From NCBI GenBank assembly GCA_002498385.1, contig DAHH01000019.1:1772-65771 (forward strand): DNA of 64,000 bases, written 5' to 3'. The DNA comes from Methanobacterium sp. UBA410 (GTDB lineage: Archaea; Methanobacteriota; Methanobacteria; Methanobacteriales; Methanobacteriaceae). The translations under genes were made by a program, and so were the position numbers. A model generated the notes under the pieces. The model had not been told where the DNA came from. It did no database searches and worked only from the letters and a program-made list of their open reading frames with translations. This document shows, one piece after another, positions 2,007 through 63,394 of this stretch (positions are counted from its first letter, which is position 1; each line of letters opens with the position of its first letter).

Positions 2007-2182
2007 AGTTACCACCGTTTATTATTATGTCAGAGAATCTACTTATTTTTAACGCTTCATAGAATTTTATAAAAAAGGCGAACTGTTCCTGTAAACTGAA
2101 GTTTCACTGGTAATTGGAGTTAACAGTTGATAAAGACGGTTGATAAAAAAAATTAATTACGTTACAAAAAATAGTTTTCAGG

Positions 2183-2800: not shown

Positions 2801-2980
2801 AATCTTTTGTTAGCATAATTTTGAAACTTAATTTAAGGATCGTCAAAATTCTTAATCCGGAGGAACTTCAGACCTAAAAACCACATTTAATATGGATTTC
2901 AGTTTTTAACTTATAATTCAATGTTTATTTTAAGTTTTATCCTTTTAAAATCTTTGTAGATGTCAAAAAGGAGGTAAAAC

Positions 2981-4456
2981 ATGAAGAAATATCGGTGTTT
3001 GGTTTGTGACTATGTGTACGACCCTGAAAAAGGTGACCCTGTTGGGGGTATAGAACCTGGAACAGATTTTAAGGATCTTCCAGAGGACTGGATCTGTCCA
3101 GTCTGTGGAGTTGGTAAGGACAAGTTTGAAGAAGTTACAGAGAAATCGGAGAGAAAATCATTAGCAATGTTCTGTTACCAGTGCTCCCAGACTGCGGGAG
3201 AAACTGGTTGTACAGTTAGGGGTGTTTGTGGAAAGGAACCTACAGTTGCAAGACTTCAGGACAATCTGCTCTTTGCGATTAAGGGAATATCTGCCTATCT
3301 CTATCATGCAAGGGAACTTGGATACACAGATCCTGAGATAGATGCCTTCCTCGAGAGGGGATTTTACTCTACGCTTACCAACGTGAACTTTGATGCTGAG
3401 GATTTTGTGAAACTGGCGCTGGAAGCCGGTCACATGAACATACGAACCATGCAACTTCTGAAGAAGGCTCATATCGAGAGTTACGGCGAGCCAACGCCAA
3501 CAGAAGTTCGTGTGGGATCTGTGAAGGGTCCAGGGATCGTTGCAACAGGTCACAGCATGAAGGCACTTGAGGAACTCTTAAAACAGACTGAGGGAACTGG
3601 AGTAAATGTTTACACCCACTCTGAACTTTTACCGGCCCATGGATATCCTGGGCTTCGCAAGTACGATCACCTGGTGGGCCAGCTTGGAGGGCCATGGTTC
3701 GATCAAAGAGATACCTTTAGTAAATATCCTGTTGCAGTGCTTGGAACCTCAAACTGTGTATTGCTCCCTAAGGATGATTACAGAGATAGGATGTTCACGT
3801 CGGGTGTTGCACAGCTTCCAGGGGTTAAGCACATAGACGGCTACGATTTCACTCCTGTAATTGACAAGGCCAGATCACTACCGGAACTTCAAGATGAACC
3901 AAGAGAAACAGTTCTCACAACAGGATTTGGAACATCAACGGTCCTATCACTTGCAGATAATATAAAAGAACTTGTTGAATCCGGCAAGATAAGGCACTTC
4001 TTCGTGGTTGGGGGATGTGACTCACCAAAACCCCAGGCAACATATTACAGGGAATTTGTGCAGAAACTGCCTGAAGATACAGTTGTTTTAACGCTTGCAT
4101 GCGGGAAGTACAGGTTCAACGACCTTGAACTTGGAGACATCGAGGGAGTTCCAAGGCTCATAGATTTAGGCCAGTGCAATGATGCAATAGTCGGAATAGA
4201 CATTATAACAGCTTTATCAGAATTATTCGGCCAAGAAATAAATGAACTGCCCCTCACGTTCATCTTAAGCTGGATGGAACAGAAAGCAGTGGCAATACTC
4301 TGGAGCTTTCTATCACTAAATGTTAAAGGAATGTACCTCGGCCCAATAATACCTGGATGGATGAATGATGACATTCTGAAAATTTTGGTGGAAAATTACA
4401 ACATAAAACCAATTGGTGATCCGGAAAAAGATATAAAAGATATTCTTGGTGAGTGA
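2981..4456 (+). CDS. hcp: rubredoxin-domain / hybrid cluster protein (hydroxylamine reductase-like) fusion
   Basis: N-terminus '[17 protein letters not shown]...[20 protein letters not shown]' is a rubredoxin CxxC...CxxC knuckle pair. It is followed by the Hcp N-terminal cluster motif '[21 protein letters not shown]' and an Hcp-like body. RBS GGAGGT lies upstream. Confidence 0.85.
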
Positions 4457-30842: not shown

Positions 30843-30915
<73 letters not shown>

Positions 30916-30936
30916 ATATGAAAGTTAGCGTTTGAG

Positions 30937-31021
30937 TGCGGGGGCAGGGGTTCGAACCCTGGTAGACCTATGTCAACAGGTCCTAAGCCTGTCCCCTTTG
31001 ACCTGACTCGGGCACCCCCGC
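30937..31021 (-). tRNA. tRNA-Leu (UAG), long variable arm
   Basis: Acceptor GCGGGGG/CCCCCGC, anticodon arm ACAGG-CUUAGGA-CCUGU, 85 nt with an extra arm, T-loop GUUCGAACC. Confidence 0.85.
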
Positions 31022-31109
31022 AGTTAGATTTATTTAATGTCACTGTTTTTTTACGTATATTTCATATTCCTTTTTCATATTCCTTCACATGAAAAATGTA
31101 CATAAAAAC

Positions 31110-31188
<79 letters not shown>

Positions 31189-31236
31189 AATATGATCATG
31201 ATTGAACTGATTTTTTGAATAGTCTGTTGAATAGAG

Positions 31237-31310
<74 letters not shown>

Positions 31311-31312
31311 AA

Positions 31313-31389
<77 letters not shown>

Positions 31390-48100: not shown

Positions 48101-51100
48101 GGACTTGAAGAATATGAAAAAGAATACTTCAAATCAGGACAGCCATGTGTGGGACTCCTTGAAAGTACAATGTACGTTACGGGTAATGGATTACAGCCTT
48201 ACTATGCCATAATAGCAGCTCTTGAAGCAAAAGGAATAAATGTAATACCCATTGTTGCATACGGTGGAACAGCTGCTCAACTTGAAGCAATGCTTGAAAT
48301 ATTCACCAACGCAACGAGTTATGATAAATTCATTCTTAACCCCTCGGCCTACAAAGTTAATCTAGATGCTGTTGTTGACATGGTTGCATATGGTCTTGGA
48401 GGAACTGATTTCTCCGAGATAATTCCATTCTTCAATGCTTTGAACGTGGAAGTTGTGGCTGCAGTTCATTCGGATTTCGAAACGAATGCTCAGTATGCAC
48501 TGGGCACCAGTGGATTAAATGCTTTAACAGGTGACAAGTGGTGGCACATTGCAATTTTGGAAGATCAGGGGATAGTGGATCCCATATTTGTTGGAGGTAA
48601 AGCAGAGACTGTAGACCCTCTTACAGGAACAACAATCAGTAGCTACGTTCCATATGAACAAAATATAGAACTTCTGGCAAATAAAATAAGTAGCTGGACA
48701 GCTCTAAAATACCTCTCAAATGCAGCAAAGAAGGTAGCCTTAATATACTACAACTACCCTCCAGGAAAACAGAACATTGCAGCAAGCTACCTGGATCCTG
48801 TGCAGAGCATATTGAACCTTTTAAATGTGCTGAAACAGAACGGGTACAATGTACAAAACATTCCGTCCAATGCGGCCCTTCTCCTGGATGAGATGATGGC
48901 GCAGGGAACCAACATAGCTTCCTGGGCACAGGGTCTTGTGGAAATCTTAGCCAACAACAACGGATCCCTCTTGGATGAATTAAAGGCCTACCAGGAGAAT
49001 GACACCTACAAGGTAGACCTGACCAAGCTGGATAAAACTGAACTGGAAAAACTCGCCAACACACCAGGAGTTATACTGTACTCTGCAGATGACTTCATGA
49101 AATGGTTCAACCAGCTCGACGACCTTGTGAAGCTGGATATTACAGAGGGACCCGTTGCCTACATAGGCGAACTCTGTAAAAGGGCAGTTGCACTGGGTTA
49201 TGTAGATAACATGGACAGCGTTATAGACAGCTGGTACTCCCAGATGGTCTCACTGCTTCCAGACAATCAAACAAACGTGGCATTACCAATATTGACAAAT
49301 TTAATCAGTGAACTCAAGGTTTACGTGGATTATAACAGTACAGCTGCATACAACAAATATTTGAACTACAAAAAAGAGTTTTTAGCCATTGAAATAAAGG
49401 GAATGTCTGGATGGGGAGATTTCCCCGGAAATGTAATGACAGTTGTGAAGAATGGAATCAAGTACTTTGTTTTACCAGGCATACAGTTTGGAAATGTGCT
49501 TATAGCGCCAGAACCGCAACGTGGATGGGAAGGAAATGCTGAACAACTTTACCACAACAGTGTTGTACCTCCAGATTACCAGTACCTTGCATTTTATGCT
49601 TACCTGCAGCAGCAGGGGTATAATGCAATGGTCTTCGTAGGAAGACACGCAACCCATGAGTGGCTACCAGGTAAGGAGGTGCTTGAAGATGCAGATGATT
49701 TCACATCCATAGTCACAGGAAACGTGCCACAGATATACTTCTACATAGTTGACGGTGTGGCAGAAGGAATAACAGCTAAAAGAAGGGGATCTGCAGTCAT
49801 AATAGATCATCTAACCCCACCAATGGGATTCACCAGCCTTTATGGAGGTATGTCAGATCTTGAAAGCCTGGTTGAGGATTATGATGGTGCAGATGATGCT
49901 GGAAAGGCTTCTATCATAATTAAAATCAAAGAGACAGTGAAAGACAACAACCTGGCGGCAGACATAGGCATCGACATAAATAACTTGAGCAGTGATAAAA
50001 TAATCAAGTTAATCAATGAGTACCTTGAAGCTGTGACAAACACGTTCTATCCATACGGTGTGGACGTTCTGGGCCAGAACTGGACGGATGATCAGATAGC
50101 TCTGCTTGTAACCTCCATGCTTTCTGTTCCATTCAATGTTGGCGGTGGAAACGAAACGAGTTTGCAGAATGAAATAGCCCTGTTAATGAGGGGAAAGACC
50201 TATGACTCGTTGAATGCTGCCGAACAGAATGCGGTGCAGGAGAAGTGTATTGAAGTTGTGAAGGAGCTCCTTCAAAGTGATGTTACAACAGTTGCAAATA
50301 AACTCACACCTAATCCCACGGAAAACCTGCAAACTGCCCTTAAAAAGGCTGTAACCTACTGCAATGAAATAAAGGAGAGCGTGAACAATGAGATAAACAG
50401 CTTCCTCAATGCGCTGAACGGGGGTTACATAACTCCAGGACCTGCAAACGATCCTATAAATAACCCTGAGGCCCTTCCTACTGGAAGAAATTTTTACCAG
50501 GATCAAGCAGCTGAGATACCCACTAAACAGGCTTACCAGAATGCAAAAGACCTTGTTCTCGCAACTTTGGAGGGTTCAGACCTTAAAGACACTGTGAAGA
50601 AGATCGTGGTTGGAATCTGGGATGTGGAAACAGCCAGGGACAATGGAGAACTCATCGCAATGATACTTTGCCTTCTTGGAATGGAGCCACAGTGGACAGA
50701 TTCACCAAGTGCAGGATCAGGCGGTGCAAAACTCAAAGAAATGCCCATCTATGATGAATTAAGCAGTCTGGTCAGGCCAGATGGTTGGGGGAAGAAAAGA
50801 ATAGATGTGGTGGTTGTAATCGACGGTAACTTCAGGGATCTTTACAGCAGACAGCTGGGACTACTGGATAAAGCGTTCAGAGTGGCTCTGGCAAGATCAT
50901 ACTACACCCTACTCAACAATGCAACCCTCCAATCCAAATATGGAGACAAGATGAAAACAGCTTTAGATGCTGTGCTTTTGGACATTGGATACTATGGTCT
51001 TGGCAGTGAGCCCCTTGACGATAATTACGTGGCATATGATTGGGTTGATGATTTCCAGTACTACATGGATGAGGGCATGAACTGCACAGAGGCAGGAGAA

Positions 51101-52306
51101 CTTGCAATATCCAGAATATTTGCCCCACCAGAAAATGATTACGGTGCACTCATCAGCCAGTCTGTGAAGCAGAGCTGGACCTGGAGCAATTCCGCAGAAC
51201 TTGCAGAGAACTACCTGAACAGAATGGGACACATTTACTCCTCTGAAAACTGGGGAACCTACAGTGCAAAAGCATTCAAAAGAGCCCTCACAGGAGTTTC
51301 TAAAGTTTTCACAAGCAGGGACACAAACTTATACGGTATACTTGACAACGATGACTTTTTCGATTACTGGGGGGGTCTTTCACTGGCAATAACTGCAGTG
51401 AACGGTCAGACACCTGACATGTATGTTTTAAAATATGGTAGTGGTACTAAACCAGGAGTTATGGGCATTGAACAGTTCCTTAACAGGGAATTGAACACCA
51501 GATACTACAACCCACAGTGGATCCGGGGAATGATGAGCAGTGGGTATGCCGGTGCAGGATACATGCAGAAATTCGTATCCAACCTCTGGGGATGGCAGGT
51601 TACAAGGTCAAGCGCGGTTCAGAACTGGATGTGGGACAACATAGTTGACACATACCTCAAAGATAAAAACAACCTTGGGGTTACACAGTTCCTTGAAAAC
51701 GGTAACAATGCCTATGCCATGATAAGTATGACGGGAACGCTTTTAACGGCTGCTTACAATGGTTACTGGAAGACGGATCAGGCAACCTTACAGATGGTTG
51801 CAAATGAATGGGCTCGCATGGTTATTGAACATGGTGTGGCCTGCTGTGACTGTAGCTGCGGTAACATTGCCATGATGAAGTGGGCTGTTCAGTACATCAA
51901 TGTGGACATGCTGGCGCAGTTTAAAAGTCAATTATATGCTGCAACTCAGAATTCTGCATTTGCTCCTTCATCGCAGCAGCAGACAAATCCCGGTGAAAGT
52001 CAATCTTCTCAAAGTCAGTCCGGTCAGTCTCAATCTGGCCAGTCCAGTGCTCAGGGTAGTTCTCAGGGACAATCCAGTGGTTCAAATCAGGGTCAAAGTC
52101 CGGCAGGTGTTGGGACTTCATCTGGACAGTCATCCTCTGAGTCGGGCCAAGGATCCTCTGGAGATCAGGGTAAAGCCAGTGAGGTAACTCCTGTAAGCCA
52201 AAGTTCCTCTTCACAGACAGGAATGCCAATAGCAGCCATATTTGGTATTATTGCAATTGTCTGCCTTGTTGGTGTGGGGTACTTTAGGGGCAAAGGTAAA
52301 TTCTAA
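45122..52306 (+). CDS. giant secreted, C-terminally anchored DUF3344-like / CARDB / CobN-type chelatase-domain fusion protein
   Basis: Signal peptide 'IFMLLFLTLFSLTICGTASADSS'. The N-domain is homologous to the N-terminus of the previous protein ('NGTVSGGLY', 'VYSGN', 'RVTSDYIMCYDVTSL', 'AYNDGDSDKIAYWVN'). CARDB 'LPDLQVSNI...', 'LPDLVPVSI...'. CobN signatures 'FVGRHATHEWLPGKE', 'AKRRGSAVIIDHLTPP', 'DYWGG'. Ser/Gln-rich linker, TM helix, and a 'RGKGKF' tail. The TTG at 45137, 8 nt after GGAGG, is an alternative start. Confidence 0.85.
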   Translation: MEAHKLANKKVKINIFMLLFLTLFSLTICGTASADSSVGGQPVVTVLNGTVSGGLYNDSYYGINGSEDHQNVTYNFKDLPSNAQVQNATLYVAVYSGNMQSDHITCANVTFNGKQIDSQTLDTHYNSPSSGGNDNTAYGGTRRDPYLIVNNHTVRVTSDYIMCYDVTSLVKQKNMAYVDTVGSYDGGIKLITLIVAYNDGDSDKIAYWVNFGQDVCDSNDSGNTTFGGLPVDDTVNSAILKVIHLASADGIYHFNSAHDSMDNILSNSSPVGSYSGSDTWDVTSMYKKGTENTLIYHRSLAYYKLVLALLTVNYTEPAVKLPDLQVSNIICNPDAIKLSGNLFSDSSNTIKATVKNLGSLDAGQFKMVLKVGNYIETKVIKGLASGASTIVSFTGFLPITNGLVTLDVTADSDGQITEANETNNMAAKSVNVVTSILPDLVPVSISVPSDLKVDTAYPVTVTVVNEGVKSSGKTRVILWATNIKTGDKVEVGSMDLDSLPVNGTKVLTFSWTPKLYTTYNLTAEVDPDGSIEELDETNNKKVDVEYVKEPGSTMIFLTSDNNGVNILDSAAREVLKQYPKIDFKIRTGTEISNMDTSELRTYLLNCDIFIGTWVTTEAYEAINATLTAYPDLINVIAGKKVFLVLEPPASTVSNAINFMNYSVIDGVKLLGNFTSDDLTAYYQNTERGTDYNQVLKYVESGTLATLIKSYEGASSDVKTSIVSQVKSIINIFNIGSNIQNLTGDNLINAVKAYLSLVTLTTSYSSAGTDERNKIAAKIQELIKNYNFNSFTDEMNACVALETLVDNYQNASTDEDKTKIVSRLENIIKDITAYTAATSDSDRANILHDFKSLIGSTGTDADAVTMMVQVRSILEDVTGMKLENLTADENLTGNVTAILKYRGVFNDYLIGAVSKYTGSTVVTDLDLPDLFDKAVLYKDLNDASRAKDMILWALSLDGFVTTYNEPPSFSSTPSYGIYRNKWYSYVDSDGVWHTGLEEYEKEYFKSGQPCVGLLESTMYVTGNGLQPYYAIIAALEAKGINVIPIVAYGGTAAQLEAMLEIFTNATSYDKFILNPSAYKVNLDAVVDMVAYGLGGTDFSEIIPFFNALNVEVVAAVHSDFETNAQYALGTSGLNALTGDKWWHIAILEDQGIVDPIFVGGKAETVDPLTGTTISSYVPYEQNIELLANKISSWTALKYLSNAAKKVALIYYNYPPGKQNIAASYLDPVQSILNLLNVLKQNGYNVQNIPSNAALLLDEMMAQGTNIASWAQGLVEILANNNGSLLDELKAYQENDTYKVDLTKLDKTELEKLANTPGVILYSADDFMKWFNQLDDLVKLDITEGPVAYIGELCKRAVALGYVDNMDSVIDSWYSQMVSLLPDNQTNVALPILTNLISELKVYVDYNSTAAYNKYLNYKKEFLAIEIKGMSGWGDFPGNVMTVVKNGIKYFVLPGIQFGNVLIAPEPQRGWEGNAEQLYHNSVVPPDYQYLAFYAYLQQQGYNAMVFVGRHATHEWLPGKEVLEDADDFTSIVTGNVPQIYFYIVDGVAEGITAKRRGSAVIIDHLTPPMGFTSLYGGMSDLESLVEDYDGADDAGKASIIIKIKETVKDNNLAADIGIDINNLSSDKIIKLINEYLEAVTNTFYPYGVDVLGQNWTDDQIALLVTSMLSVPFNVGGGNETSLQNEIALLMRGKTYDSLNAAEQNAVQEKCIEVVKELLQSDVTTVANKLTPNPTENLQTALKKAVTYCNEIKESVNNEINSFLNALNGGYITPGPANDPINNPEALPTGRNFYQDQAAEIPTKQAYQNAKDLVLATLEGSDLKDTVKKIVVGIWDVETARDNGELIAMILCLLGMEPQWTDSPSAGSGGAKLKEMPIYDELSSLVRPDGWGKKRIDVVVVIDGNFRDLYSRQLGLLDKAFRVALARSYYTLLNNATLQSKYGDKMKTALDAVLLDIGYYGLGSEPLDDNYVAYDWVDDFQYYMDEGMNCTEAGELAISRIFAPPENDYGALISQSVKQSWTWSNSAELAENYLNRMGHIYSSENWGTYSAKAFKRALTGVSKVFTSRDTNLYGILDNDDFFDYWGGLSLAITAVNGQTPDMYVLKYGSGTKPGVMGIEQFLNRELNTRYYNPQWIRGMMSSGYAGAGYMQKFVSNLWGWQVTRSSAVQNWMWDNIVDTYLKDKNNLGVTQFLENGNNAYAMISMTGTLLTAAYNGYWKTDQATLQMVANEWARMVIEHGVACCDCSCGNIAMMKWAVQYINVDMLAQFKSQLYAATQNSAFAPSSQQQTNPGESQSSQSQSGQSQSGQSSAQGSSQGQSSGSNQGQSPAGVGTSSGQSSSESGQGSSGDQGKASEVTPVSQSSSSQTGMPIAAIFGIIAIVCLVGVGYFRGKGKF

Positions 52307-52846
52307 AAATATTTTTCTTTTTTTCTTTTTTTAGATTAGTAAGATAATTTGTAATTAGTTTTAAAAATTAGTTTTTTGCAGATTCTGGATCAGCGCATGA
52401 TTATTTTAAAAATCCTGTAAAAAAAGTAGTTTCTGAAATGTTTAGAGTGTTTCAAACCCCTTGAAATTCAAGTTAATTCTATAAAAAGTTCTAAGAATAT
52501 GTTTTAGATCTCTATTTTGAATCCAAACTTCAAGGAGGAAATAGAGGATCTAAACTATTAAAACAAGAGTTAGATCCCGGTTACCCATTTTTTTCTATTT
52601 TGATGTTTTTTTTAGGAGGTTTAAAACTGTTCAGTGGTGGAATTAATTATTGGTCTCATCACCACACTTGCTTGTGCACCACAGTATATAAAGCTTTCTT
52701 TATTTTTTATCAAGTAACTGTGAAAAAAATAGTAAATTATATAAGTCATATTTACTTTACTTTTTTTCATGTACATTTGATTAATTTGGATTGATTGTTG
52801 AATGTACAATAAAAAATTTCTTATAAAAAGTGAAGGAGGTGAAAAT

Positions 52847-55800
52847 GTGAAAAAGCAAGTGTTATTACTATTTTTTGGTCTTATTATTGGAATTACAGTT
52901 TTTGGATCAGCGGTTTCAGCTGCCGACGTGAATTCTAATGTTAATGGCGCTCAAATTCAGATGGATAGTGATGTTTCAAACAGTACTGTAAATCCATCCG
53001 GTATTAATGCATCAACAGTAGTCGTGAATTCTCAAGGTTCAAACAACTGTGAGGATTCAGATTATAATGTTACAGCAGGTACTGATCCAGAAATTACCCT
53101 GAATGTTAATCTTGAACATCCAAAAGCACTTTCCAATAATTTACCAACAGTAACGGTAACAGATTCAGATGGTAAAACCATAGGTGATGTAACAGTAACA
53201 AAAACTGGAGACAAACAGTACAAAGTGAACTTCACAAGCGATAAAAAGAACTTCAACTTAACAGTTGGTGCAGGAGGACATGTACCTCAAACAGTGAACG
53301 TATCAGTCTCACAAAAAAACGCCAGCGATTCTACACGCTACGGTGAAGCAACAGTAAACCTGAGGGTTTACAATCTACTTATAATCAGTGGATCTCCAAA
53401 TTATGCCAAGAACTTCGTTGATTCGAATAGGGAATTAAGAGATAAAGGTTACTACTTTAATTTGAACTTTTTCACCACAACTGATGTAATATCCGGTGAT
53501 CCCAATGTGCAAAACAAGATAAAAAAAATGGCTTCAAGGGCAGACCTTATCATTCTTGAAATGATGAGTGAACAGGACACAGTTTCAATGGTAAGAAAAC
53601 TTATAAATGGCACAAATGCCAAGATAATGGCTTTAAGATGTGGTGTGACATTTTTAAATGACCCAATCATTGACTCAAACGACACTGAACTGACGGCTTA
53701 CTGGGATGGAACGGGTACAGAGAACATGGCAAGATTCCAGTTAAAAGCACTTCAAAAAGTGGGAATGAATGTTGACCCTTCCGAAGATCTGAGTGTTGTT
53801 AATTATCCAACTGAGTTCATTTACCATCCAGATTCTAACATATCAATGTTTTCAACGTGGGATGACTACCTGAAATGGTACATGCAGAGTGGTCATTACA
53901 AATCGGGAGCCCCATGGGTTGGAATAATGATGTATGGGTCAATGTTTTTCGGTGGAAACAGTGATATGGCTATGAGTATACTCAGAAGCCTTGAAGCAAA
54001 GGGTTTAAATGTGATTTTAGCTGTAACTACATCCACTGATAAAGCCAGAGTAAATGCAATCCTCAAATATTTCTTGGACGGTGATCTAAGTAGAATAAAT
54101 GCCCTTGTGGCCTGTGTGGGTTTCAACATCATTTACAATAACCCACAAAACAGTACAGATCTACTTAAAAAAATGGATATACCCATATTTGCACCGATAT
54201 ATGCTTCAGACCTTGAAGCATGGAAAAATAGTTCTGGTGGATTGTCTAGTGAGGTTTACTGGCAGGTTGCATGGCCAGAGATGGAAGGAAGGATAGAACC
54301 CATTATAATGGGTGGTGTAGAGTCTGGAGAAACAGATCCGTACACAAGCATCACAGTTAAAAACTATGAACCGATAGCAGATCGGATAGAAAGAATAGCA
54401 AACAGAGTACTGAACTGGGTAGAACTTCAAACTCTCCCCAACAGTGGGAAGAAAATAGCTTTGATCTATTACAACACTGCAGGGGGTAAAGATGGTGTTG
54501 GTGCTTCTTACCTCAACGTATCTGAAAGCATATCTGAAATTCTAAAAGCTCTCAAAGCAGCAGGTTACAATTTATCAGATGATTATTCAGTGGATTCCAT
54601 AATTAAGCTGCTTTTAACTGCGGGTAACAACGTTGGTTCCTGGGCTCCGGGAGAGCTTAAAAAGGTTGTGGATGCAGGTGCGATAACCATACCCGTTAAT
54701 GAATACATGCAGTGGTTTAATGCTTTACCTGAAGAACTTAGAAATGAAGTTATCGTTAAATGGGGTCCAGCTCCTGGTAATGTCATGGTTTATGAAGATA
54801 AAATCGTTTTACCTGGCATAATGTTGGGTAATATTTTTGTTGGAGCTCAACCAATGCGTGGATGGGGAGAAGATCCTGCGCAGATAGCTCACTCTCCAAC
54901 CTTACCACCAACTCACCAGTACATAGCCTTTTACATGTGGCTACAAAATGAAATGAAGGCCAATGCAGCCATACATCTGGGAACACACGGAACACTGGAA
55001 TGGTTGCCAGGAAAAAGTGTGGGATTAAGTGGTGATGACTGGCCGGATGTTCTAATGGGAAACATACCTGACATATATCCATATATTGTGGATAACCCTG
55101 GAGAAGGAACTCAGGCCAAAAGAAGGGGTTATGCAGTGATAATTGATCACATGACTGCTCCTGAAATAAGCTCAGGGCTCTATGGAGATCTTTCAGACCT
55201 GCAGACTCTGATAAACAGCTACGACAGTACCACCGATGAGGAACGTAAAAATGTTCTTGAAAAGCAGATCAGGGAACTTGTAACCAAACTGCATCTGGAC
55301 CAGGATCTGGGAATCAACATGGATACTGAAGCTTTCAACAACATTAAAAATGATGTTGAACACAAATTGCAGGATATTTCAACAACACTCATGCCTTACG
55401 GTCTTCATACCTTTGGAGTTACCCTAAATGGTACAATTCTGGATCAGATGATTGAATCCATAGTCAGCTTTGACCCAGCAACTAGGGACAACCAGGAATT
55501 CAGAGACAAATTAAGAGAGGAACTTTCTAAAAACTATGAAATAGAAGATTTATTGACAGTATTGAGTGGAAAATTTGTATCGCCTGCTTTGGGTGGTGAT
55601 CCAATTCGTAAACCTGATGTTTTGCCGACTGGTATGAACTTTTATTCATTTGATCCAAGATCAGCGCCAGATAAAACTGCCTGGGAAATTGGTAAGAATA
55701 TGGCCGATGACATGATTGCAGATTACTACCAGAAAAATGGTCACTACCCAGAATCAGTAGGAGTTGTTTTATGGTCAACTGAAACCATGCGTACCAACGG

Positions 55801-57283
55801 TCAAACTATAGCCATGATACTCAGGTACATGGGCTTAGAACCGGTCTGGGATTCCTCAGGAAGATTCAAAAGCTTTAAAGTAACACCATTGAGTGAGCTT
55901 CAGAGGCCTCGTTTGGACGTCATGGTAACCATAAGCGGTCTTTTCAGAGACACCTTCTCTTACACAATTGATGTTTTAGACCGGGCCTGTCGTGAAGTTG
56001 GAAGCCTACAGGAAAGTAACAGTGACAACTACGTTAAAAAACACTATCAAAATGACTACAATAAATATATACAGGAAGGAATGAGTTCTAAAGATGCAGC
56101 AAAATTTGCAGGAGCCCGTATATTCGGCCCTGCTGCTGAAGGTTATGGAACAGGAATTGCGGCACAGGTACCTTCAACTTCAGGATGGAAGGACCAATCA
56201 GATCTTGTGGATACTTACCTATCAAGAATGTCCTACATTTATGGCAGTGGAAACTACGGTGTTCAGGCAACTGAAACCTTTAAAGACCAGCTTAAAAATG
56301 TGCAGGCAACTGTACAGGTCAGAGACAATAATTATGGGCTTCTGGACAACGACGACGTGTACCAGTACCTCGGTGGTTTAACCATGGCTGCAAAAAGTCT
56401 TTCTGGCCAGGATGTAAATGTTTACATAGCAAACACCAGATCACAACCAAGAATAGAAACTTTGGGAAGCTTCCTGAGTAACGAACTTCGAACCAGACTC
56501 TACAATCCTAAATGGATTCAGGGAATGCTTAATGAAGGTTTTTCAGGGGCTCATGAGATAGATCAGGAACTAGGAAACTTTTTCGGCTGGAATGCTGTTA
56601 CTCCAGGTGCTATAAGTGATTGGATGTGGCAGGGTATGGCTCAAACTTATGCGTTTGATTCAAGTGTCCGAAGCCAGATGCTTCAGGCAAATCCTTATGC
56701 TTACACTTCGATGCTTGGGTGGATGCTTGAGGCAGGTAGAAGAGGCATGTGGAATGTTGATAAGACAACTCTAACGGAACTTGCCAATCAGTACGCTAGT
56801 TACACGAATCAGTACGGTGTTACATGTTGTCATCACACCTGTGCGAACATCATGTTCAACCAGTGGGTTGTTCAGGCTTCTTCCTTAAATAGCGGCCAAC
56901 TGCAGCAGTTTGCAAGTGTTGTGGCTGCTGCCACAGGTAAGAGCATAAGTGTTCCAAGTGGTTCAAGCAGTCAATCTGGTTCTCAGAGTTCCAGTGGGTC
57001 TCACTCTTCTTCGTCTGTGACTCCTGGTCTCAGTGCATCTGCAAGTAAAGTTCAGGGCAGTGCATCTGGTGCACAGTCAAGTTCTGCATCTCAGAGTGGT
57101 TCAGCTGGTTCTCAAAGTAGTTCTACCAGTGGATCCAGTAGTAAAAATGCGCATGAGATCTCTCCAGTGAGCTCTCAAAGTTCTTCAGCAGCATCTGGAG
57201 TTTCTTTTGCAGCCATAATTGGGGTAATATGCATTGTGTGTCTTGTTGCTGTGGGATACTTTAGAACTAGAAGAAATATTTAA
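52847..57283 (+). CDS. secreted, C-terminally anchored CobN-type chelatase-domain protein (paralog of the previous gene's C-terminal part)
   Basis: GTG start 5 nt after GGAGGTG. Signal peptide 'VLLLFFGLIIGITVFGSAVSAADV'. CobN signatures 'HLGTHGTLEWLPGKS', 'AKRRGYAVIIDHMTAP', 'LPTGMNFYSFDP', 'VYQYLGG'. Ser-rich linker, TM 'FAAIIGVICIVCLVAVGYF', and a 'RTRRNI' tail. Confidence 0.85.
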   Translation: MKKQVLLLFFGLIIGITVFGSAVSAADVNSNVNGAQIQMDSDVSNSTVNPSGINASTVVVNSQGSNNCEDSDYNVTAGTDPEITLNVNLEHPKALSNNLPTVTVTDSDGKTIGDVTVTKTGDKQYKVNFTSDKKNFNLTVGAGGHVPQTVNVSVSQKNASDSTRYGEATVNLRVYNLLIISGSPNYAKNFVDSNRELRDKGYYFNLNFFTTTDVISGDPNVQNKIKKMASRADLIILEMMSEQDTVSMVRKLINGTNAKIMALRCGVTFLNDPIIDSNDTELTAYWDGTGTENMARFQLKALQKVGMNVDPSEDLSVVNYPTEFIYHPDSNISMFSTWDDYLKWYMQSGHYKSGAPWVGIMMYGSMFFGGNSDMAMSILRSLEAKGLNVILAVTTSTDKARVNAILKYFLDGDLSRINALVACVGFNIIYNNPQNSTDLLKKMDIPIFAPIYASDLEAWKNSSGGLSSEVYWQVAWPEMEGRIEPIIMGGVESGETDPYTSITVKNYEPIADRIERIANRVLNWVELQTLPNSGKKIALIYYNTAGGKDGVGASYLNVSESISEILKALKAAGYNLSDDYSVDSIIKLLLTAGNNVGSWAPGELKKVVDAGAITIPVNEYMQWFNALPEELRNEVIVKWGPAPGNVMVYEDKIVLPGIMLGNIFVGAQPMRGWGEDPAQIAHSPTLPPTHQYIAFYMWLQNEMKANAAIHLGTHGTLEWLPGKSVGLSGDDWPDVLMGNIPDIYPYIVDNPGEGTQAKRRGYAVIIDHMTAPEISSGLYGDLSDLQTLINSYDSTTDEERKNVLEKQIRELVTKLHLDQDLGINMDTEAFNNIKNDVEHKLQDISTTLMPYGLHTFGVTLNGTILDQMIESIVSFDPATRDNQEFRDKLREELSKNYEIEDLLTVLSGKFVSPALGGDPIRKPDVLPTGMNFYSFDPRSAPDKTAWEIGKNMADDMIADYYQKNGHYPESVGVVLWSTETMRTNGQTIAMILRYMGLEPVWDSSGRFKSFKVTPLSELQRPRLDVMVTISGLFRDTFSYTIDVLDRACREVGSLQESNSDNYVKKHYQNDYNKYIQEGMSSKDAAKFAGARIFGPAAEGYGTGIAAQVPSTSGWKDQSDLVDTYLSRMSYIYGSGNYGVQATETFKDQLKNVQATVQVRDNNYGLLDNDDVYQYLGGLTMAAKSLSGQDVNVYIANTRSQPRIETLGSFLSNELRTRLYNPKWIQGMLNEGFSGAHEIDQELGNFFGWNAVTPGAISDWMWQGMAQTYAFDSSVRSQMLQANPYAYTSMLGWMLEAGRRGMWNVDKTTLTELANQYASYTNQYGVTCCHHTCANIMFNQWVVQASSLNSGQLQQFASVVAAATGKSISVPSGSSSQSGSQSSSGSHSSSSVTPGLSASASKVQGSASGAQSSSASQSGSAGSQSSSTSGSSSKNAHEISPVSSQSSSAASGVSFAAIIGVICIVCLVAVGYFRTRRNI

Positions 57284-57288
57284 TTTTT

Positions 57289-57317
57289 GGGGTTTAAACC
57301 CTTTATTTTATTTTTTA
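57289..57317 (+). terminator. candidate terminator: GGGTTTAAACCC palindrome followed by a T-rich tract
   Basis: Lies 6 nt after the stop of the CobN paralog: 'ggggtttaaaccc tttattttatttttt'. Confidence 0.35.
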
Positions 57318-57667
57318 AATCATTGGATCAAAGTTTTTAGGATTTTATTTTTGGTTTTAAGGTGATATTTTCTTGTTTTGCTCAGTTATTGATGTTTGTT
57401 GGTTTTAAGTTTCATAGGAAAATAGATTTTTCAGATGGTTTTTTTTGGACTGTTTTTAATCAAAAACTTTAAATATTCCATTTATCTTTAATTTTTATAA
57501 AGTATTCTTGATTAGGGGGAATGGCTAAACCAAAGAAGTTACAAAAAGGATTCGATCATATGCGAATAAGTTTTAAATAGATTAATGTATTACTTAAAGG
57601 CTTAAAAACAGCTTTAAAGTAATAATATTTATCAAATGAAAAGTATTATATGCTCAAAGAATAAATC

Positions 57668-58387
57668 ATGGAAATGATTAAAATGATTGAGTTACTATGG
57701 AAATTAGGAGTTCTATCAGCAGTTCTGGTTTTTGGAGTGAAGATTGGACTGGCAATGGGATTTGCAGGTTTGTCTAAAAAACTGGCAGCTTTGATCACCT
57801 TTGGATACGGTGGTGGGATACTTATCCTGTCAAAACTGGCTGAGGCTTATACAAGCGTTCTTTATAATGTTATCTATAACTACAGCAGTGTTGCTTTCAT
57901 GTTGATGGCGTTGATCATTTTTGTTGCAGGGTTCCACACCATTAAGGAGTGGAAGAAGAACAAGAAGAACCATGCAAAGGCCACATGTGCAGCCATGATA
58001 GCACCTTGCCCATGTTGTTTTGGGGCAGTTATAACTGCGATCATAATTGTATCACCAATAATTGGAGCTTCATCTTTCTTTGTTGGAAAGTACGCAGCAA
58101 TATTTTTGATGGTGTTCATAGGTGTTTTCTACCTGTTATCCGATGTGATCGTGAGGATCAGCAGGAAACCCTTCCCGGTTTTGCTGGGTAACTTCATGCT
58201 CTTTGTTGGATTGTACTTCCTCGCATCTGCCCTGATCATGCCAAACATCAGCTCGGTTTTAGCATCGCCCATGTCCAAAGTGGAAATTCCTTCAGTTGCA
58301 AACATGGTTTACGTGTTGATCGTGGTTGTAGCTTTGCTGGCATTGGGAATTTATAAAACAAGGAAAACCAGTTCTCTGATAAATTAA
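57668..58387 (+). CDS. polytopic membrane protein (DUF2162-like predicted transporter) with an intramembrane Cys cluster
   Basis: About 6-7 hydrophobic helices. 'TCAAMIAPCPCCFGAVITAIIIV' lies in a predicted TM segment. The family name is from memory. Confidence 0.7.
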   Translation: MEMIKMIELLWKLGVLSAVLVFGVKIGLAMGFAGLSKKLAALITFGYGGGILILSKLAEAYTSVLYNVIYNYSSVAFMLMALIIFVAGFHTIKEWKKNKKNHAKATCAAMIAPCPCCFGAVITAIIIVSPIIGASSFFVGKYAAIFLMVFIGVFYLLSDVIVRISRKPFPVLLGNFMLFVGLYFLASALIMPNISSVLASPMSKVEIPSVANMVYVLIVVVALLALGIYKTRKTSSLIN

Positions 58388-58403
58388 GGTGAGGGGTGAA
58401 TCA

Positions 58404-59078
58404 ATGGTATCAATTCCGGGCAGTGACTTGCTTAGTGGAGCTTTACACGTGGTTTCGCAGAGTCTTCTCATACCAGTAATGGTGACTCTGTTAATATTTC
58501 TAGTTTATGCAGTGATTGAGGTAGGAGGAATCCTATCTGAATATTCAAGTAGAATCAAGCTTGATGCAGCTCAAGTTGAGCTCATTGTAAAAGGCATCAC
58601 TGTTGCAACTACATCATCTGATATATGCAGGGTTGTAGAAAACACTGAACTTCCACGTGAACACAAAGACGTACTTATAAAAATTGCAAACAATATTGAA
58701 ATGGCTCCAAAGGCCAGGGAAACACTTGCAAGAAAATTAATTGAAGATGAAGAATTGAAGGCAGAAAAAAGAGTTGAAAAGACGGATATTATTGGTAAAG
58801 TTGGGCCTGCAATAGGTCTTATGGGTACGTTAATCCCACTGGGCCCAGGACTTTCAGCCATGGGTTCCGGAGATATAACCACGCTATCCAAACATTTGAT
58901 AATTGCGTTTGATGCTGCAGTTATTGGAATGGCCACAGCATCAATTGGATACACAATATCCAAGATCAGGAGGAGATGGTATGATGATCAGCTTTCAACT
59001 CTGGATGCACTTGCAGAATCAATACTGGAGGTTTTAGAAGATGTTAAGGCGGAGACGAAGACTGTCGTCTTCCAGTGA
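58404..59078 (+). CDS. MotA/TolQ/ExbB-family proton-channel protein
   Basis: Three-TM topology and the family core 'GPAIGLMGTLIPLGPGLSAMG...IIAFDAAVIGMATASIGYTISKIRRRWY'. ATG at 58404 follows GGTGAGGGGTGA, 17 nt after the DUF2162 stop. Confidence 0.8.
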   Translation: MVSIPGSDLLSGALHVVSQSLLIPVMVTLLIFLVYAVIEVGGILSEYSSRIKLDAAQVELIVKGITVATTSSDICRVVENTELPREHKDVLIKIANNIEMAPKARETLARKLIEDEELKAEKRVEKTDIIGKVGPAIGLMGTLIPLGPGLSAMGSGDITTLSKHLIIAFDAAVIGMATASIGYTISKIRRRWYDDQLSTLDALAESILEVLEDVKAETKTVVFQ

Positions 59079-59379
59079 AGATATAGACCCCATGGTTTAC
59101 GCCGTGAACATGGTGGACTGCATGCTTGTGCTTGCTGTGGGCTTTCTGATCTTCACTGTGATGTCCATGGGTTTGCAGAGTATTGTTTTCAGCGACGCAA
59201 CACCCCAGCAGAAACAGGAAATGATAAAAACAGTGGCACAAACAGTCCAGGTCCAGCAGGGACAGCAGCTAAATGAAACACCTCAAACATCATCTGGATC
59301 AGGCTCAGGATATGCAGAAATGGGAAAAGTCTACAAAGATCCCTCAACAGGCAAACTTATCATGGTGCAGGGTTCTTGA
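59041..59379 (+). CDS. ExbD/TolR-like single-TM protein (DUF2149-like), truncated exterior domain
   Basis: 'RRRRRLSSSSEDIDPMVYAVNMVDCMLVLAVGFLIFTV' parallels the E. coli ExbD N-terminus 'INVTPFIDVMLVLLIIFMV', including the TM Asp. Overlaps the ExbB-like gene by 38 nt. Confidence 0.65.
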   Translation: MLRRRRRLSSSSEDIDPMVYAVNMVDCMLVLAVGFLIFTVMSMGLQSIVFSDATPQQKQEMIKTVAQTVQVQQGQQLNETPQTSSGSGSGYAEMGKVYKDPSTGKLIMVQGS

Positions 59380-59842
59380 AGTCTTTAAAACTAAATTTTA
59401 ATTTTTTTAATTATCCTTTTTTTAACTATCCTTTTTTTAACTATCTGATGTTGATGGGTTATTGAGGAATATGAATCCACATGAATTTAAATAAAATGTT
59501 AATGCTGATTGAAACTAATTTTAAAATTTATTTATAAAATTTTTATTTATAAAATTACAACAGGTACCTTTAGACTCTATGAGAATTTCTAGATTCTATG
59601 AATTTTTAATTAGAGCAAAAATTGTTTAAGACATCATGAAGAAGCTGCATGAAAAATTAAAAATCCTTCCGTTATTTCATAAGCTTTGCTTAATTCCTTA
59701 CTTTTTTTAAGCGTACCATTTGAGTTGGTTGCATGAAATAATTTTAATTGTTTACTTGTACTGTTTAGGCCCTCCTAAGAAAAGAATAATTAAAAATAAT
59801 CTATAAAAATAGAATCTCTGAAAAAATAGTATACTAAAAATG

Positions 59843-59890
59843 ATCTAAAAATTCTAAAATCTAAAAATTCTAAAATCTAAAAATTCTAAA
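59843..59890. repeat. 16-nt tandem repeat, three perfect copies (atctaaaaattctaaa) with degenerate copies to about 59920
   Basis: 59843-59858, 59859-59874 and 59875-59890 are identical. The same spacer also has 'tatcctttttttaac' x2 (approx. 59411-59446). Confidence 0.85.
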
Positions 59891-60043
59891 AATTCTAAAA
59901 ATTTCTTCTAAAAATTTCTATTAAACCAAAAATTTTTCTTAAATTAAAAAGGTTGGAATTTTGGGAAGTTAAAACTCCCCTTAAACGTTCCTCTTGAATT
60001 CTTGAGTTATATCCACTTTTGAGTTATATCCACCAAAACAGGA

Positions 60044-62326: not shown

Positions 62327-63394
62327 TCAACTGGAACCATCTATACTACCTTTCTCTTTTAGGTTAATTAATATATCTGCAACATGACTTAAAGCTGCAG
62401 CCCCGATCATCCGTGTGTTGTGGTCTTCATCATCCAGGAAGGATTCTAACCTGCGTAAATGCCCTTTTTCAAGGAAAGTGTTGGTATAAACAGTTGCTAA
62501 CTTATTTAAAGGGTTTTTTTCTTCGGATTCAATTTTTGTCAGTTGAGAAATGGGTAATACTCCCCTCTCCTCAACTAAGATATCCAGATCATCAAATATG
62601 GGTATTATATCATTTATTTTGGATAAAAAACTGTTTTTGTATATTGAGTAGGTCAACATGTTGTAACGAATTTTTAAATTCCTTCGAAGTTTAATTTCTG
62701 GTTTGAAGTTTGAGATCTTGAGTTTGTACTTGTACACAAGGTAATTCAAAACATTGCAAAACTGTGTTATTCTGGCTGAAATTTTGGCTAAAATTGAGGT
62801 TTCAGTTCTATCTTTGAAAACTGGTGAATTGGAATGTAATTCGAATTTTGGTGTTTTGAATGATAATTCAAAGGAGTTTAAGGTGGGTAAAACTGGAAAC
62901 TGGATTTGCAGGGATTTGAAATGTTGTTCAAGTTTGGATCTAAACTGGTTTTCCAGCTGGGTGGATAGTTTCGGTATAACCTCAACTGCCTCCAGCATTT
63001 CTGATCTGTTTAAAACTAGTTCCAGTGATTCTTCTGCACATTTTTGGACATCTGGGTCCTCATTGCTCATTAATGACCTGAGTTCGCTGATCATGATCCC
63101 ATTTAAGTGGGGTTCCTGATTTAATGAGGATAGGTTTCCAAGGGCGTAGGCCTCCACATCCTTTCTCTCATGTGAGAGAAGTACTAACGCGATTTTTAAA
63201 CCAATCTCTAAGTTATGGTTGGAGGTTTTTTTTAGAACAGTTTCCAGAATTTCTTTTAGATCTTCCAGATTTTTAGGATCATCTCTTATTACATATTTCT
63301 GATTTGATTCCTTTTTATTCAAATTTAAGTTTTTAAAAACCTTAATAGAACCATATTTGTTTTTATAACTTATCTCAGGCACCATATCCTCCAT
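62327..63394 (-). CDS. hypothetical protein, alpha-helical, possibly HEAT/ARM-like repeats at both ends
   Basis: ORF with coding-like composition. 'NEDPDVQKCAEESLELV' and 'DEDHNTRMIGAAALSHVAD' resemble HEAT repeat cores. The central part is Lys/Asn-rich. Confidence 0.45.
   Translation of the reverse strand: MEDMVPEISYKNKYGSIKVFKNLNLNKKESNQKYVIRDDPKNLEDLKEILETVLKKTSNHNLEIGLKIALVLLSHERKDVEAYALGNLSSLNQEPHLNGIMISELRSLMSNEDPDVQKCAEESLELVLNRSEMLEAVEVIPKLSTQLENQFRSKLEQHFKSLQIQFPVLPTLNSFELSFKTPKFELHSNSPVFKDRTETSILAKISARITQFCNVLNYLVYKYKLKISNFKPEIKLRRNLKIRYNMLTYSIYKNSFLSKINDIIPIFDDLDILVEERGVLPISQLTKIESEEKNPLNKLATVYTNTFLEKGHLRRLESFLDDEDHNTRMIGAAALSHVADILINLKEKGSIDGSS

Follow-up and report, generated by a model that had tools for sequence, protein, structure and literature searches.

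A putative ExbB/DUF2149 motor encoded beside secreted CobN-family proteins in a Methanobacterium genome

The window analysed here is a stretch of 64,000 nucleotides from Methanobacterium sp. UBA410 (contig DAHH01000019.1, positions 1,772 to 65,771 of the forward strand). The system in question lies at positions 57668-59379 of its + strand, where reading frame calls place three densely packed genes in the order DUF2162, ExbB-like, DUF2149. It is very probable that the ExbB-like and DUF2149 proteins form an ExbB/ExbD-type ion-conducting complex, homologous to HmuU/HmuV of the bacterial hmu operons, that acts without TonB. As to where the work of this motor goes, the chances are about even that it is directed at neighbouring C-terminally anchored surface proteins, which in the window are two CobN-family (de)chelatases encoded upstream. 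The host of the window is a Methanobacterium; the proteins of the triad have near-identical copies in metagenomes, and their closest named relatives belong to Methanobacterium and Methanobacteriaceae.

The ExbB-like and DUF2149 proteins

The ExbB-like gene (58404-59078, + strand, ATG start) encodes a presumed A subunit of the ExbB/TolQ/MotA type. Its 224 residues match the Pfam family MotA_ExbB (PF01618) over residues 110-205, at 34.9 bits against a gathering cut-off of 22.9 (E=1.4e-8). Since a sequence search of the PDB returned only a marginal match to MotA (E=0.12), a comparison of folds was required. The AlphaFold2 model (mean predicted local distance difference test score, pLDDT, 74.6) consists of a long helix for the first transmembrane (TM) segment, TM1, a trio of short helices on the cytoplasmic side, and a pair of long helices in which TM2 and TM3 lie. 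This is the layout of ExbB and TolQ, whose three TM helices have a helical cytoplasmic domain inserted after TM1 and before TM2. In a Foldseek comparison with the PDB, 49 of the top 50 matches were ExbB, TolQ, MotA or PomA chains, mostly at a probability of 1.0, with TM-scores of 0.28-0.58 (mostly 0.42-0.58) over ~205 columns of the 224 residues. This structural check bears out the ExbB/TolQ likeness claimed in the original prediction, a reading of the letters made without database searches; there the likeness had been confined to the last two helices, but the fold match spans the whole protein.

TM2 of the ExbB-like protein carries the motif G-L-M-G-T142 and TM3 the motif A-F-D170-A-A-V-I-G. 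P135, G138, L139, G141 and T142 are invariant when the protein is aligned to ExbB and TolQ of E. coli and to both proteins from Trichlorobacter (Geobacter) lovleyi. The G141-T142 pair, aligned with the GLFGT of ExbB and TolQ, is unchanged across 27 archaeal homologues, and T142 corresponds to the pore-lining TM2 threonine (T148 in ExbB, T145 in TolQ). In TM3 (residues 168-175, A-F-D), D170 is invariant in the same 27 archaeal homologues and occurs also in those of actinobacterial type; in T. lovleyi a Thr is found. D170 sits two residues before the position of the conserved TM3 threonine (T181 in ExbB, T209 in MotA), and a second acidic residue in the pore-lining TM3 could bear on the choice of ion.

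The DUF2149 gene (59041-59379, + strand) encodes 112 residues that match Pfam PF09919 (E=2.1e-21), and its start is backed by the conserved basic N-terminus of the homologues. After its own basic N-terminus, the protein has a single N-in TM helix (residues ~20-42, VNMVDCMLVLAVGFLIF), a low-complexity linker and a conserved C-terminal motif. The helix contains an aspartate, D26 (codon 59116-59118), which hhalign places on D25 of E. coli ExbD, with the helix on ExbD residues 19-39; the ExbD alignment proposed for this protein in the original prediction, aspartate included, is thus recovered. Against E. coli ExbD or a small ExbD/TolR alignment the match has E ~1e-3 and a probability of 17-22%, over 20-21 TM columns only, and from sequence alone the homology of DUF2149 and ExbD is suggestive. 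The counterparts of D26 are presumably ExbD Asp25, TolR Asp23 and MotB Asp32, whose role the buried Asp26 would take. The window protein has no match to Pfam ExbD (PF02472), and three of 97 family members match that family weakly (best E=3e-3). Run against PDB sequences, the DUF2149 profile found no match even at E up to 10, and NCBIfam holds no model for DUF2149 or DUF2162. One bridging member, P0490, begins with an ExbD-like start (DVNVTPLVDVMLVF) and ends in the DUF2149 motif.

When 1.84 billion cluster representatives were searched by profile, 348 DUF2149 clusters came up at E <= 1e-3, so the family is small. In a conservation alignment of 97 full-length members, 25-56% identical to the window protein, the sole invariant columns are G95 and D26 of the TM helix; orthologues without the TM aspartate were looked for, and none is present among these diverse sequences. 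P17, N23, M28, L29, V30, G34, V97, Y98, D100, T103 and G104 are conserved in at least 90% of them. The conserved positions fall into two blocks joined by a linker of variable length and composition: D-P-x4-N-[L/M]-x-D-x-M-L-V at the start of the helix and, usually 50-70 residues past the Asp, G-x-V-Y-[K/R]-D-P-x-T-G-K-[L/M]-[I/Y]-x-[V/I] near the C-terminus. In the window protein the second block makes up the last ~15 residues (59323-59367; G-x-V-Y-K-D-P-x-T-G-K-L-I-M-V, GKVYKDPSTGKLIMV) and is hairpin-like. The exterior part of the protein, ~70 residues, contains neither the folded alpha/beta domain of ExbD and TolR nor the OmpA-like domain of MotB, and Pfam recognises DUF2149 alone. In ExbD, the periplasmic domain is the part that contacts TonB. 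The absence of a folded ExbD domain and the low-complexity linker had been correctly foreseen, but the exterior is not featureless, as its C-terminal motif is among the most conserved positions of the family.

Gene neighbourhoods were compared in two sets of loci. A one-genome-per-species scan with a 28-sequence DUF2149 subset found at least 556 relatives, from which the best 80 loci were taken, all of them in Methanobacteriales and several genomes supplying two or three; open reading frames (ORFs) were called, tagged by profiles of the window families, and the remainder clustered. The bacterial context comes from ~11 single look-ups, many on short contigs. In every archaeal and bacterial locus examined, an ExbB-like gene lies directly upstream of DUF2149. 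The two genes overlap in 43 of 76 related loci and are separated by 20 nt or less in 26 more (69 of 76 together), so the tight coupling proposed from the window is general among its relatives. In the window the DUF2149 gene shares 38 nt with the end of the ExbB-like gene, as had been noted; the gap ahead of the ExbB-like gene had been given as 17 nt but counts 16 nt (58388-58403), and it contains AGGTGAGGGGTGA just before the ATG. With its N-in topology, its invariant Asp, its constant place after a gene of the ExbB fold and its tight coupling to that gene, DUF2149 is well supported as the equivalent of the ExbD/TolR/MotB B subunit. Strictly speaking it falls outside the ExbD family, because the folded periplasmic domain is absent.

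Archaea have, to our knowledge, no outer membrane and no TonB, and the pair is found also in bacterial loci that look monoderm, in the company of SLH, dockerin and lipoprotein binding proteins and of FecCD with an ABC ATPase. On the T. lovleyi plasmid NC_010815, one strand carries in succession a TonB-dependent receptor, DUF2162, ExbB-like, DUF2149, CobN, ExbB, ExbD, TonB and a further TonB-dependent receptor, and cobalamin biosynthesis genes flank the set. Because this diderm keeps both sets side by side, its DUF2149-type pair is not the TonB energiser; a single CobN has the triad on one side and a genuine ExbB-ExbD-TonB set on the other, which is strong support for the earlier proposal of an output other than TonB. 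B. thetaiotaomicron has separate canonical ExbB/ExbD genes (PMC10434189). Phmmer searches of the window with TonB, TolA, ExbD and TolR found none of these, at a power that is low, since ExbB/TolQ queries missed the ExbB-like gene too. A tblastn search of the plasmid collection with one bacterial DUF2149 gave no match, and the T. lovleyi copy was reached via the literature.

Anchored surface proteins as candidate clients

Two secreted giants of the CobN family are encoded upstream of the triad on the + strand. The nearer, at 52802-57283, is a putative (de)chelatase of 1493 aa that matches the CobN/ChlH family (Pfam CobN-Mg_chel, PF02514) at 1143 bits. The other, at 45122-52306, has 2394 aa (2389 in the public gene call), combines DUF3344, CARDB and CobN domains according to Pfam, and matches PF02514 at 785 bits. 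The 1493-aa protein contains the motif H-L-G-T-H-G, and the equivalent His is present in the 2394-aa protein too, as judged by inspection against the HFG(T/A)HG motif of PMC12583661. The original prediction had credited the neighbouring CobN proteins with C-terminal TM anchors; these are confirmed, and both giants have signal peptides as well.

The anchor of the 1493-aa CobN, encoded at 57146-57280, reads NAHEISPVSS...VSFAAIIGVICIVCLVAVGYFRTRRNI, and the protein ends in NAHEISPVSS QSSSAASGVS FAAIIGVICIVCLVAVGYF RTRRNI; the NCBIfam CobN model NF004645 aligns up to its extreme C-terminus. The anchor of the 2394-aa CobN, encoded at 52169-52303, reads KASEVTPVSQSSSSQTGMPIAAIFGIIAIVCLVGVGYFRGKGKF, and the end of that protein is KASEVTPVSQ SSSSQTGMP IAAIFGIIAIVCLVGVGYF RGKGKF. 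Both are instances of a shared module, in which [Y/H/F]-E-[I/V/L/M] is followed by a polar spacer and a TM helix ending in G-Y-F-[R/K]. When anchors are right-aligned on GYF, the consensus places the Glu ~31 residues before GYF, and G-M-P opens the helix. Within the 64-kb window the anchor occurs in two of 104 long reading frames, which are the two CobNs.

The 80 archaeal loci were scanned for [Y/H/S/T/F]-E-[I/V/L], a spacer and a TM helix ending in G-[Y/F]-[F/Y/L/K/V]. CobNs encoded directly upstream of the motor all carry this anchor (34 with, 0 without), and so do six second CobNs elsewhere in the loci. Among the other proteins directly upstream of the motor, nine of the DUF11 type and two others have the anchor and 20 do not. 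PKD/DUF3344-type giants elsewhere in the loci invariably lack it (0 with, 70 without, seven of these with PxQxTG), and unrelated proteins elsewhere have it in eight cases and lack it in 514, the eight being NosD-like divergent neighbours and FmdE-like proteins of the same clusters. In bacteria, the motif followed by a TM helix is seen in the CobN of L084 (AYEL), in the CobN of T. lovleyi (GFEM...TM...GFGFRR), in the Big_2 protein of L088 (VFEM), in L092 (TYEL) and L090 (LHEV), in the CobN of L101 (TEL), and in a 539-aa protein of L095 that belongs to no Pfam family (VYEV). The end of B. thetaiotaomicron HmuS, ...KKEEMNQTAENQNTLSNVAVGIAVIIVILALILFVRKRRK (appendix of PMC12583661), is a weaker variant of the anchor. 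It is the anchor, and not a passenger domain or DUF2162, that most consistently accompanies the motor.

CobN is encoded in 38 of the 80 archaeal loci, directly upstream of the triad in 34, and three further arrangements recur. In one, a pair of NosD-like beta-helix/DUF11 proteins is followed by the triad and DUF169. Another runs from a 1000-aa secreted FmdE-domain protein through a small protein, CbiM and a second small protein to the triad, and on to CbiM and a ~100-aa CbiN-like ORF, CbiM being confirmed by Pfam and the CbiN-like ORF assigned by size and position. The third, which has no DUF2162, consists of giant PKD/CHB_HEX/DUF11 surface proteins, a 260-300-aa DUF11 protein, ExbB-like and DUF2149. 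Triads flanked by CbiM and CbiN-like genes are found in the Methanobacterium loci L025 (7283-7906 and 10736-11679), L032 and L047, where the FmdE-domain protein carries the anchor. In L007, where the clients of the triad are NosD-like and CobN is missing, a 704-aa ChlD/ChlI-like protein (AAA+, AAA lid, VWA) is encoded at 1018-3132 (-), ~5 kb from the triad and on the opposite strand. Five Methanobrevibacter loci (L064, L067, L077, L079 and L082) differ in that both proteins of the pair are longer (ExbB-like, 243-250 aa; DUF2149, 120-134 aa), DUF2162 is absent, and the upstream surface giant lacks a C-terminal TM helix; in L079 an anchored protein is encoded two genes upstream.

Bacterial loci show comparable company. 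In five independent ones (L003, L084/L085, L091, L093 and L101/L102), CobN is accompanied by DUF2149 and by a short ExbB-like protein of 149-199 aa, in a setting of genes for cobalamin salvage. Genes for Peripla_BP_2 and/or a FecCD ABC importer adjoin ExbB-like and DUF2149 in about four, and two have the series Big_2, ExbB-like, DUF2149 and an Oxidored_molyb/CHB_HEX protein. On the bacterial metagenome contigs L086, L092, L095 and L099, whose loci are of the monoderm-looking kind, the pair lies between a Peripla_BP_2 protein and genes for FecCD and an ABC ATPase. The motor may also serve ABC-type importers of iron, haem or B12. The metal-context neighbours of the related loci (CbiM/CbiN, ferritin, FecCD/Peripla_BP_2), together with the cobalamin genes, point to the acquisition of metals or tetrapyrroles.

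Class I chelatases (CobNST, ChlHID/BchHID) need an energy-transducing AAA+ partner (CobST, ChlID), and ATP is unavailable outside the cell. Among the scanned ORFs of the window no such partner (CobS/CobT, ChlI/ChlD) is adjacent, and the secreted location of the CobNs, given by their signal peptides, argues against an ATP-driven one. It is this combination, an enzyme family in need of AAA+ energy, an extracellular site without ATP, no AAA+ gene alongside and a motor constantly encoded with the enzymes, that makes the CobNs plausible recipients of the motor's work.

In the mechanism proposed here, ion flow through the ExbB-like/DUF2149 motor would become mechanical work. The client would receive this work by way of its own juxtamembrane [Y/H]-E-[I/V] segment and GYF[R/K] TM anchor, by way of the hairpin-like DUF2149 motif, or by both routes. 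Its anchor would stand in for the TonB/TolA anchor of diderms and, by analogy with TonB/TolA, its helix would be placed outside the A pentamer; the C-terminal motif of DUF2149 and the Y-E-[I/V] segment of the client are candidates for a strand-to-strand contact. Motor work would in this way replace the cytoplasmic ATP-driven AAA+ partner (CobST, ChlID), and at the cell surface it would drive the extraction of a metal from a tetrapyrrole-type ligand, or its insertion, as a step in acquiring Ni, Co or Fe, with DUF2162 as a possible conduit for metal or electrons. A 5:2 stoichiometry, the use of protons, rotation, coupling to the anchor and the part given to DUF2162 are what we infer, as are the direction of the chelatase reaction and the identity of its metal and ligand.

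DUF2162, rival readings and the genomic setting

The first gene of the triad (57683-58387, + strand) encodes a membrane protein of 234 aa with ~7 predicted helices; its ORF opens at 57668, and the third Met, at 57683, is taken as the start in line with homologues and the public gene call. Its earlier description as DUF2162-like is borne out by Pfam (PF09930, E=7.7e-67), where the family is labelled as a predicted transporter. Residues 107-112 are an invariant A-P-C-P-C-C (58001-58018), which opens a TM helix after a basic Lys/Asn-rich loop. In archaeal DUF2162 proteins C-x6-C-P-C-C is invariant and lies inside this predicted helix, and the T. lovleyi homologue, at 24% identity, retains P-C-P-x-C. 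The membrane-embedded PCPxC most likely serves to carry either a soft metal ion or reducing equivalents through the membrane, and might be a soft-metal site or a redox-active cysteine relay. The AlphaFold2 model of DUF2162, of moderate confidence (pLDDT 68.7), matched no solved fold and no known transporter fold in the PDB (best E=1.4, TM-score <=0.35), and a P1B-ATPase-like or CcdA/DsbD-like interpretation of PCPxC gained no support from this fold search. A Pfam match to E1-E2_ATPase (E=0.006) is below threshold and was discounted as evidence.

The original prediction had offered two destinations for the motor's output, DUF2162 and the C-terminal anchors of the CobNs. That the pair energises DUF2162, as an importer of metal ions or tetrapyrroles for which the CobNs only bind or process substrate outside, appears rather unlikely, although several observations favour it: in 57 of the 80 archaeal loci, and in T. 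lovleyi, the ExbB-like gene is immediately preceded by DUF2162, which has both the invariant intramembrane PCPxC and the transporter label, and some triads stand beside CbiM/CbiN with no adjacent CobN. However, 23 of the 80 archaeal loci and almost every bacterial one sampled lack DUF2162, and there the pair persists without it; the pair is therefore independent of DUF2162, which is better seen as an accessory than as an obligatory output, and no known transporter fold was recovered for it. The CobN anchors are accordingly the favoured destination of the two, as the anchor tracks the motor across different passenger domains.

A different question is whether the anchor is a handle for the motor or a signal to be processed. 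The third surface giant of the window (40425-45023, + strand), which combines DUF3344, PKD, CARDB and DUF11 domains by Pfam and has no CobN domain, lacks the YE...GYF anchor and ends in KVPMQPTG plus a hydrophobic tail (KVPMQPTGIPLAGFVLAALSIFSGLLVPRRK) of the LPXTG/sortase type. A PMQxTG-type tail also ends seven other surface giants in related Methanobacteriales loci, so two C-terminal anchoring modes coexist in these genomes. The pair might then be a device for sorting, anchoring or exporting proteins with the YE...TM...GYF[R/K] module, loosely like GldLM and type IX secretion: C-terminal signals are in use, since other giants of the same genomes carry a sortase-type one, all the clients are secreted surface proteins, and passengers as diverse as CobN, DUF11, NosD-like, FmdE-like, Big_2 and the 539-aa protein have only the tripartite C-terminal module in common. 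This is nevertheless unlikely. No sortase-, archaeosortase- or rhombosortase-type peptidase, transpeptidase or secretion component was recognised among the annotated neighbours, and a consistent linkage of the triad with motility or secretion genes, which by its own account would have told against the original prediction, did not emerge in the 80 archaeal and ~11 bacterial loci, where no such gene was recognised. That the anchor is a known type of C-terminal sorting signal, whether for a sortase, an archaeosortase or otherwise, was considered and dropped, as no NCBIfam sorting-signal model matched it significantly (the best, LPXTG_anchor, reached 13.6 bits against a cut-off of 15.9, E=0.084). 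In the neighbourhoods, each motor has one or two adjacent clients, and genomes with several paralogous motors have a client beside each; this pattern suggests dedicated motor-client pairs rather than one machine with scattered substrates.

Other uses of such a motor fare worse. MotA/TolQ/ExbB proteins are widespread in prokaryotes, including small-genome archaea (bioRxiv 10.64898/2026.03.26.714534), and 399 nt separate the CobN gene from the triad; the pair could on these grounds serve Tol-Pal-like envelope maintenance or be a stand-alone ion channel, with the CobN adjacency incidental. That is very unlikely, given that synteny with CobN or another anchored protein is kept from Methanobacteriales to Thermodesulfobacteriota, that several paralogous copies per genome each lie by a different client, and that no TolA, TolB or Pal-like genes were seen. 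Powering of a TonB-dependent outer-membrane receptor has been assumed in Bacteroidota, where the genes share an operon with the receptor HmuR and HmuU/HmuV are drawn as its energiser (PMC12583661). It is most improbable here: the absence of an outer membrane in the archaeal host excludes it for the window, the complete ExbB-ExbD-TonB set of T. lovleyi is additional to the triad, DUF2149 has no ExbD periplasmic domain, and no TonB, TolA or ExbD relative was found in the window, in a search of low power whose positive control failed. A Zorya-like anti-phage system on a MotAB-type motor is effectively excluded. PADLOC gives one weak match of the ExbB-like protein to ZorA (E=2e-4, 18.5 bits) in the shared MotA/ExbB region only, and the 224 aa of the protein compare with 505 positions in the ZorA model; ZorB, ZorC and ZorD are missing, DUF2149 and DUF2162 have no PADLOC match, and the neighbours are metal and tetrapyrrole genes.

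Several observations weigh against the proposal that the motor acts on anchored CobNs and their like. The similarity of DUF2149 and ExbD is weak and limited to ~20 TM residues. The position of ExbB T181 is occupied by Ala in the window protein (AFDAAVIG) and its closest relatives, whereas the equivalent Thr is kept by most orthologues and by T. lovleyi (AFDTTVVG, AFTTVVVG). The anchor resembles a sorting signal, its motif, TM helix and basic tail making up a tripartite pattern. No anchored client stands beside the motor in Methanobrevibacter L064, L067, L077 and L082, nor in actinobacterial-type loci with a lipoprotein binding protein. ExbB-like paralogues, clustered by identity, are not cleanly sorted by client type, so no argument from co-diversification can be made. 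Purified soluble HmuS, the CobN homologue of the hmu operon, turns ferrohaem into protoporphyrin IX (PPIX) without HmuTUV (PMC12583661), and the motor is therefore not strictly required for the chemistry. The 399-nt spacer and the terminator-like site within it also stand between CobN and the triad. This AT-rich spacer (57284-57682) contains a stem plus T-run at 57289-57312, and because it separates the CobN gene from the triad in this way, the triad is probably a transcription unit of its own.

An Rfam scan found no riboswitch or other RNA near the cluster and none in the spacer; its only hits are five tRNA genes elsewhere, clustered at 30843-31387 (-). Downstream of the triad lies a long AT-rich region with tandem repeats at 59402-59445 and 59834-59903. 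The first array, 2.9 copies of TTTTTTTAACTATCC immediately after the DUF2149 stop, is probably a T-rich archaeal terminator, and the second consists of ~8 units of CTAAAAATT, alternatively scored as 16-nt units. A 355-aa ORF at 62327-63394 (-), adjoining purM, belongs to no Pfam family.

Comparison with known systems

The system is not of a new kind, since its families are already catalogued and its gene order is that of hmu operons. What appears new, as far as the searchable literature goes, is the recognition of DUF2149/HmuV as an Asp-bearing B subunit, the evidence for a separation of the pair from the Ton system, its archaeal occurrence alongside secreted CobNs, and a client anchor common to its neighbours; surveys of MotAB/ExbBD diversity make no mention of DUF2149 or CobN. 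The 5:2 motors we know of (MotAB, ExbBD, TolQR, GldLM, ZorAB) are bacterial, and ExbBD and TolQR are defined by the transmission of force to the outer membrane. A pair with an invariant Asp in organisms that have neither outer membrane nor TonB points to a different motor output, present in Archaea, and the action on membrane-anchored surface proteins that is suggested by the comparison of about 100 loci would be a new job for the motor class.

The closest parallel is Hmu: the cluster is the archaeal counterpart of hmuSTUV, a link that the original prediction had missed, as it had the membership of the three proteins in named Pfam families. In the Bacteroidota haem-uptake operon hmuYRSTUV, the last four genes are annotated as CobN (HmuS), a hypothetical protein or putative permease (HmuT), MotA/TolQ/ExbB (HmuU) and DUF2149 (HmuV) (PMC10434189, PMC11681262). 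The order CobN-like, membrane protein, MotA/TolQ/ExbB, DUF2149 is thus the same in P. gingivalis (PG1553-1556) and B. thetaiotaomicron (BT_0491-0495), and also in P. intermedia, the match being made via published annotations. HmuS was shown in 2025 to be a membrane-bound, extracytoplasmic haem dechelatase with predicted TM helices at both ends, which needs no ATP and reaches its highest activity when NADH and the membrane fraction are present (PMC12583661). Archaea were reported to have many HmuS/CobN/ChlH homologues of unknown use and no complete hmu operons (PMC12583661), and in other publications of 2025-2026 the functions of HmuT, HmuU and HmuV are called unknown, HmuV being without homology to any known family (PMC12094164, PMC13227078). 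The window resembles Hmu in its extracytoplasmic chelatase homologue and in the lack of CobS/CobT or ChlI/ChlD in the cluster. It differs in that neither the window nor the 80 archaeal loci have the HmuY hemophore or the HmuR receptor, in the missing outer membrane, and in having two CobN giants, one with added DUF3344/CARDB surface domains. The methanogen host makes its own tetrapyrroles and has large demands for Ni and Co, so the substrate need not be haem.

A broader proposal is offered tentatively, as one that may well turn out otherwise: that in archaea and bacteria alike an ExbB/ExbD-type rotary motor has been recruited to power extracytoplasmic enzymes. It would grip the client anchor on extracellular CobN-family (de)chelatases and on further surface proteins that handle metals, and replace the AAA+ partner; the anchor would be a TonB/TolA analogue of reversed topology, DUF2149 a minimal B subunit whose C-terminal motif engages the client, and HmuU/HmuV of the haem system of human-gut and oral Bacteroidota would be reassigned from HmuR to HmuS. 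Both the loci in archaea and the plasmid of T. lovleyi speak against assigning HmuU/HmuV to a TonB-dependent receptor, and the proposal is a testable answer to the question raised by the HmuS papers of 2025-2026, namely what supplies energy to extracytoplasmic CobN-type enzymes and what HmuT, HmuU and HmuV do. In methanogens, the synthesis of F430 and corrinoids uses the small chelatases CfbA/CbiX, and their many secreted CobN paralogues are therefore left without an assigned role, a matter that becomes directly testable along with that of HmuTUV. The CobN-motor link, with CbiMN in related loci, points to a route of Ni, Co or Fe acquisition at the cell surface, which would be relevant to methane production under metal limitation.

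With the class I chelatases the window CobNs share the CobN/ChlH catalytic family and the superfamily His of H-x-G-T-H-G. In contrast with those enzymes, they are secreted and membrane-anchored, and the direction of their reaction is possibly dechelation, as in HmuS. The T. lovleyi cluster is also similar in layout, with a CobN that lacks CobS/CobT and lies by ExbB-type genes, and with DUF2162, ExbB-like and DUF2149 directly upstream, so that DUF2162 is present in a bacterial form of the cluster; unlike the window host, T. lovleyi is a diderm with TonB-dependent receptors. For its plasmid pSZ77 the arrangement cobN-exbB-exbD-tonB was noted in 2012, along with the absence of CobS/CobT from the organism; that paper covers the canonical ExbB-ExbD-TonB set only, and the second, DUF2149-type motor went unremarked (PMC3403914).

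The analogy drawn for the mechanism is with the Ton and Tol systems of diderm bacteria. As in these, the A subunit has the ExbB/TolQ fold and the TM2 Thr, the B gene directly follows the A gene, the DUF2149 protein has a single N-in TM helix with its Asp at the same depth as in ExbD and TolR, and the proposed client, like TonB and TolA, has a single TM anchor with an extended polar linker. The differences are that the window host lacks an outer membrane, TonB, TolA and a TonB-dependent receptor, that DUF2149 ends in a 15-residue motif instead of a folded domain, that the window A subunit has Ala at the T181 site and belongs to an archaeal clade in which D170 is invariant, and that the client, itself an enzyme or surface protein, is anchored by its C-terminus (N-out, C-in), in the orientation opposite to that of TonB and TolA. 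GldLM, AglRQS and ZorAB are likewise ion-driven A/B motors put to a task that is neither flagellar nor TonB-linked, with a specialised B exterior. Compared with these, the exterior of DUF2149 is short, at ~70 residues, the proposed clients are metal-handling surface proteins, and no homology was detected outside the shared MotA/ExbB core.

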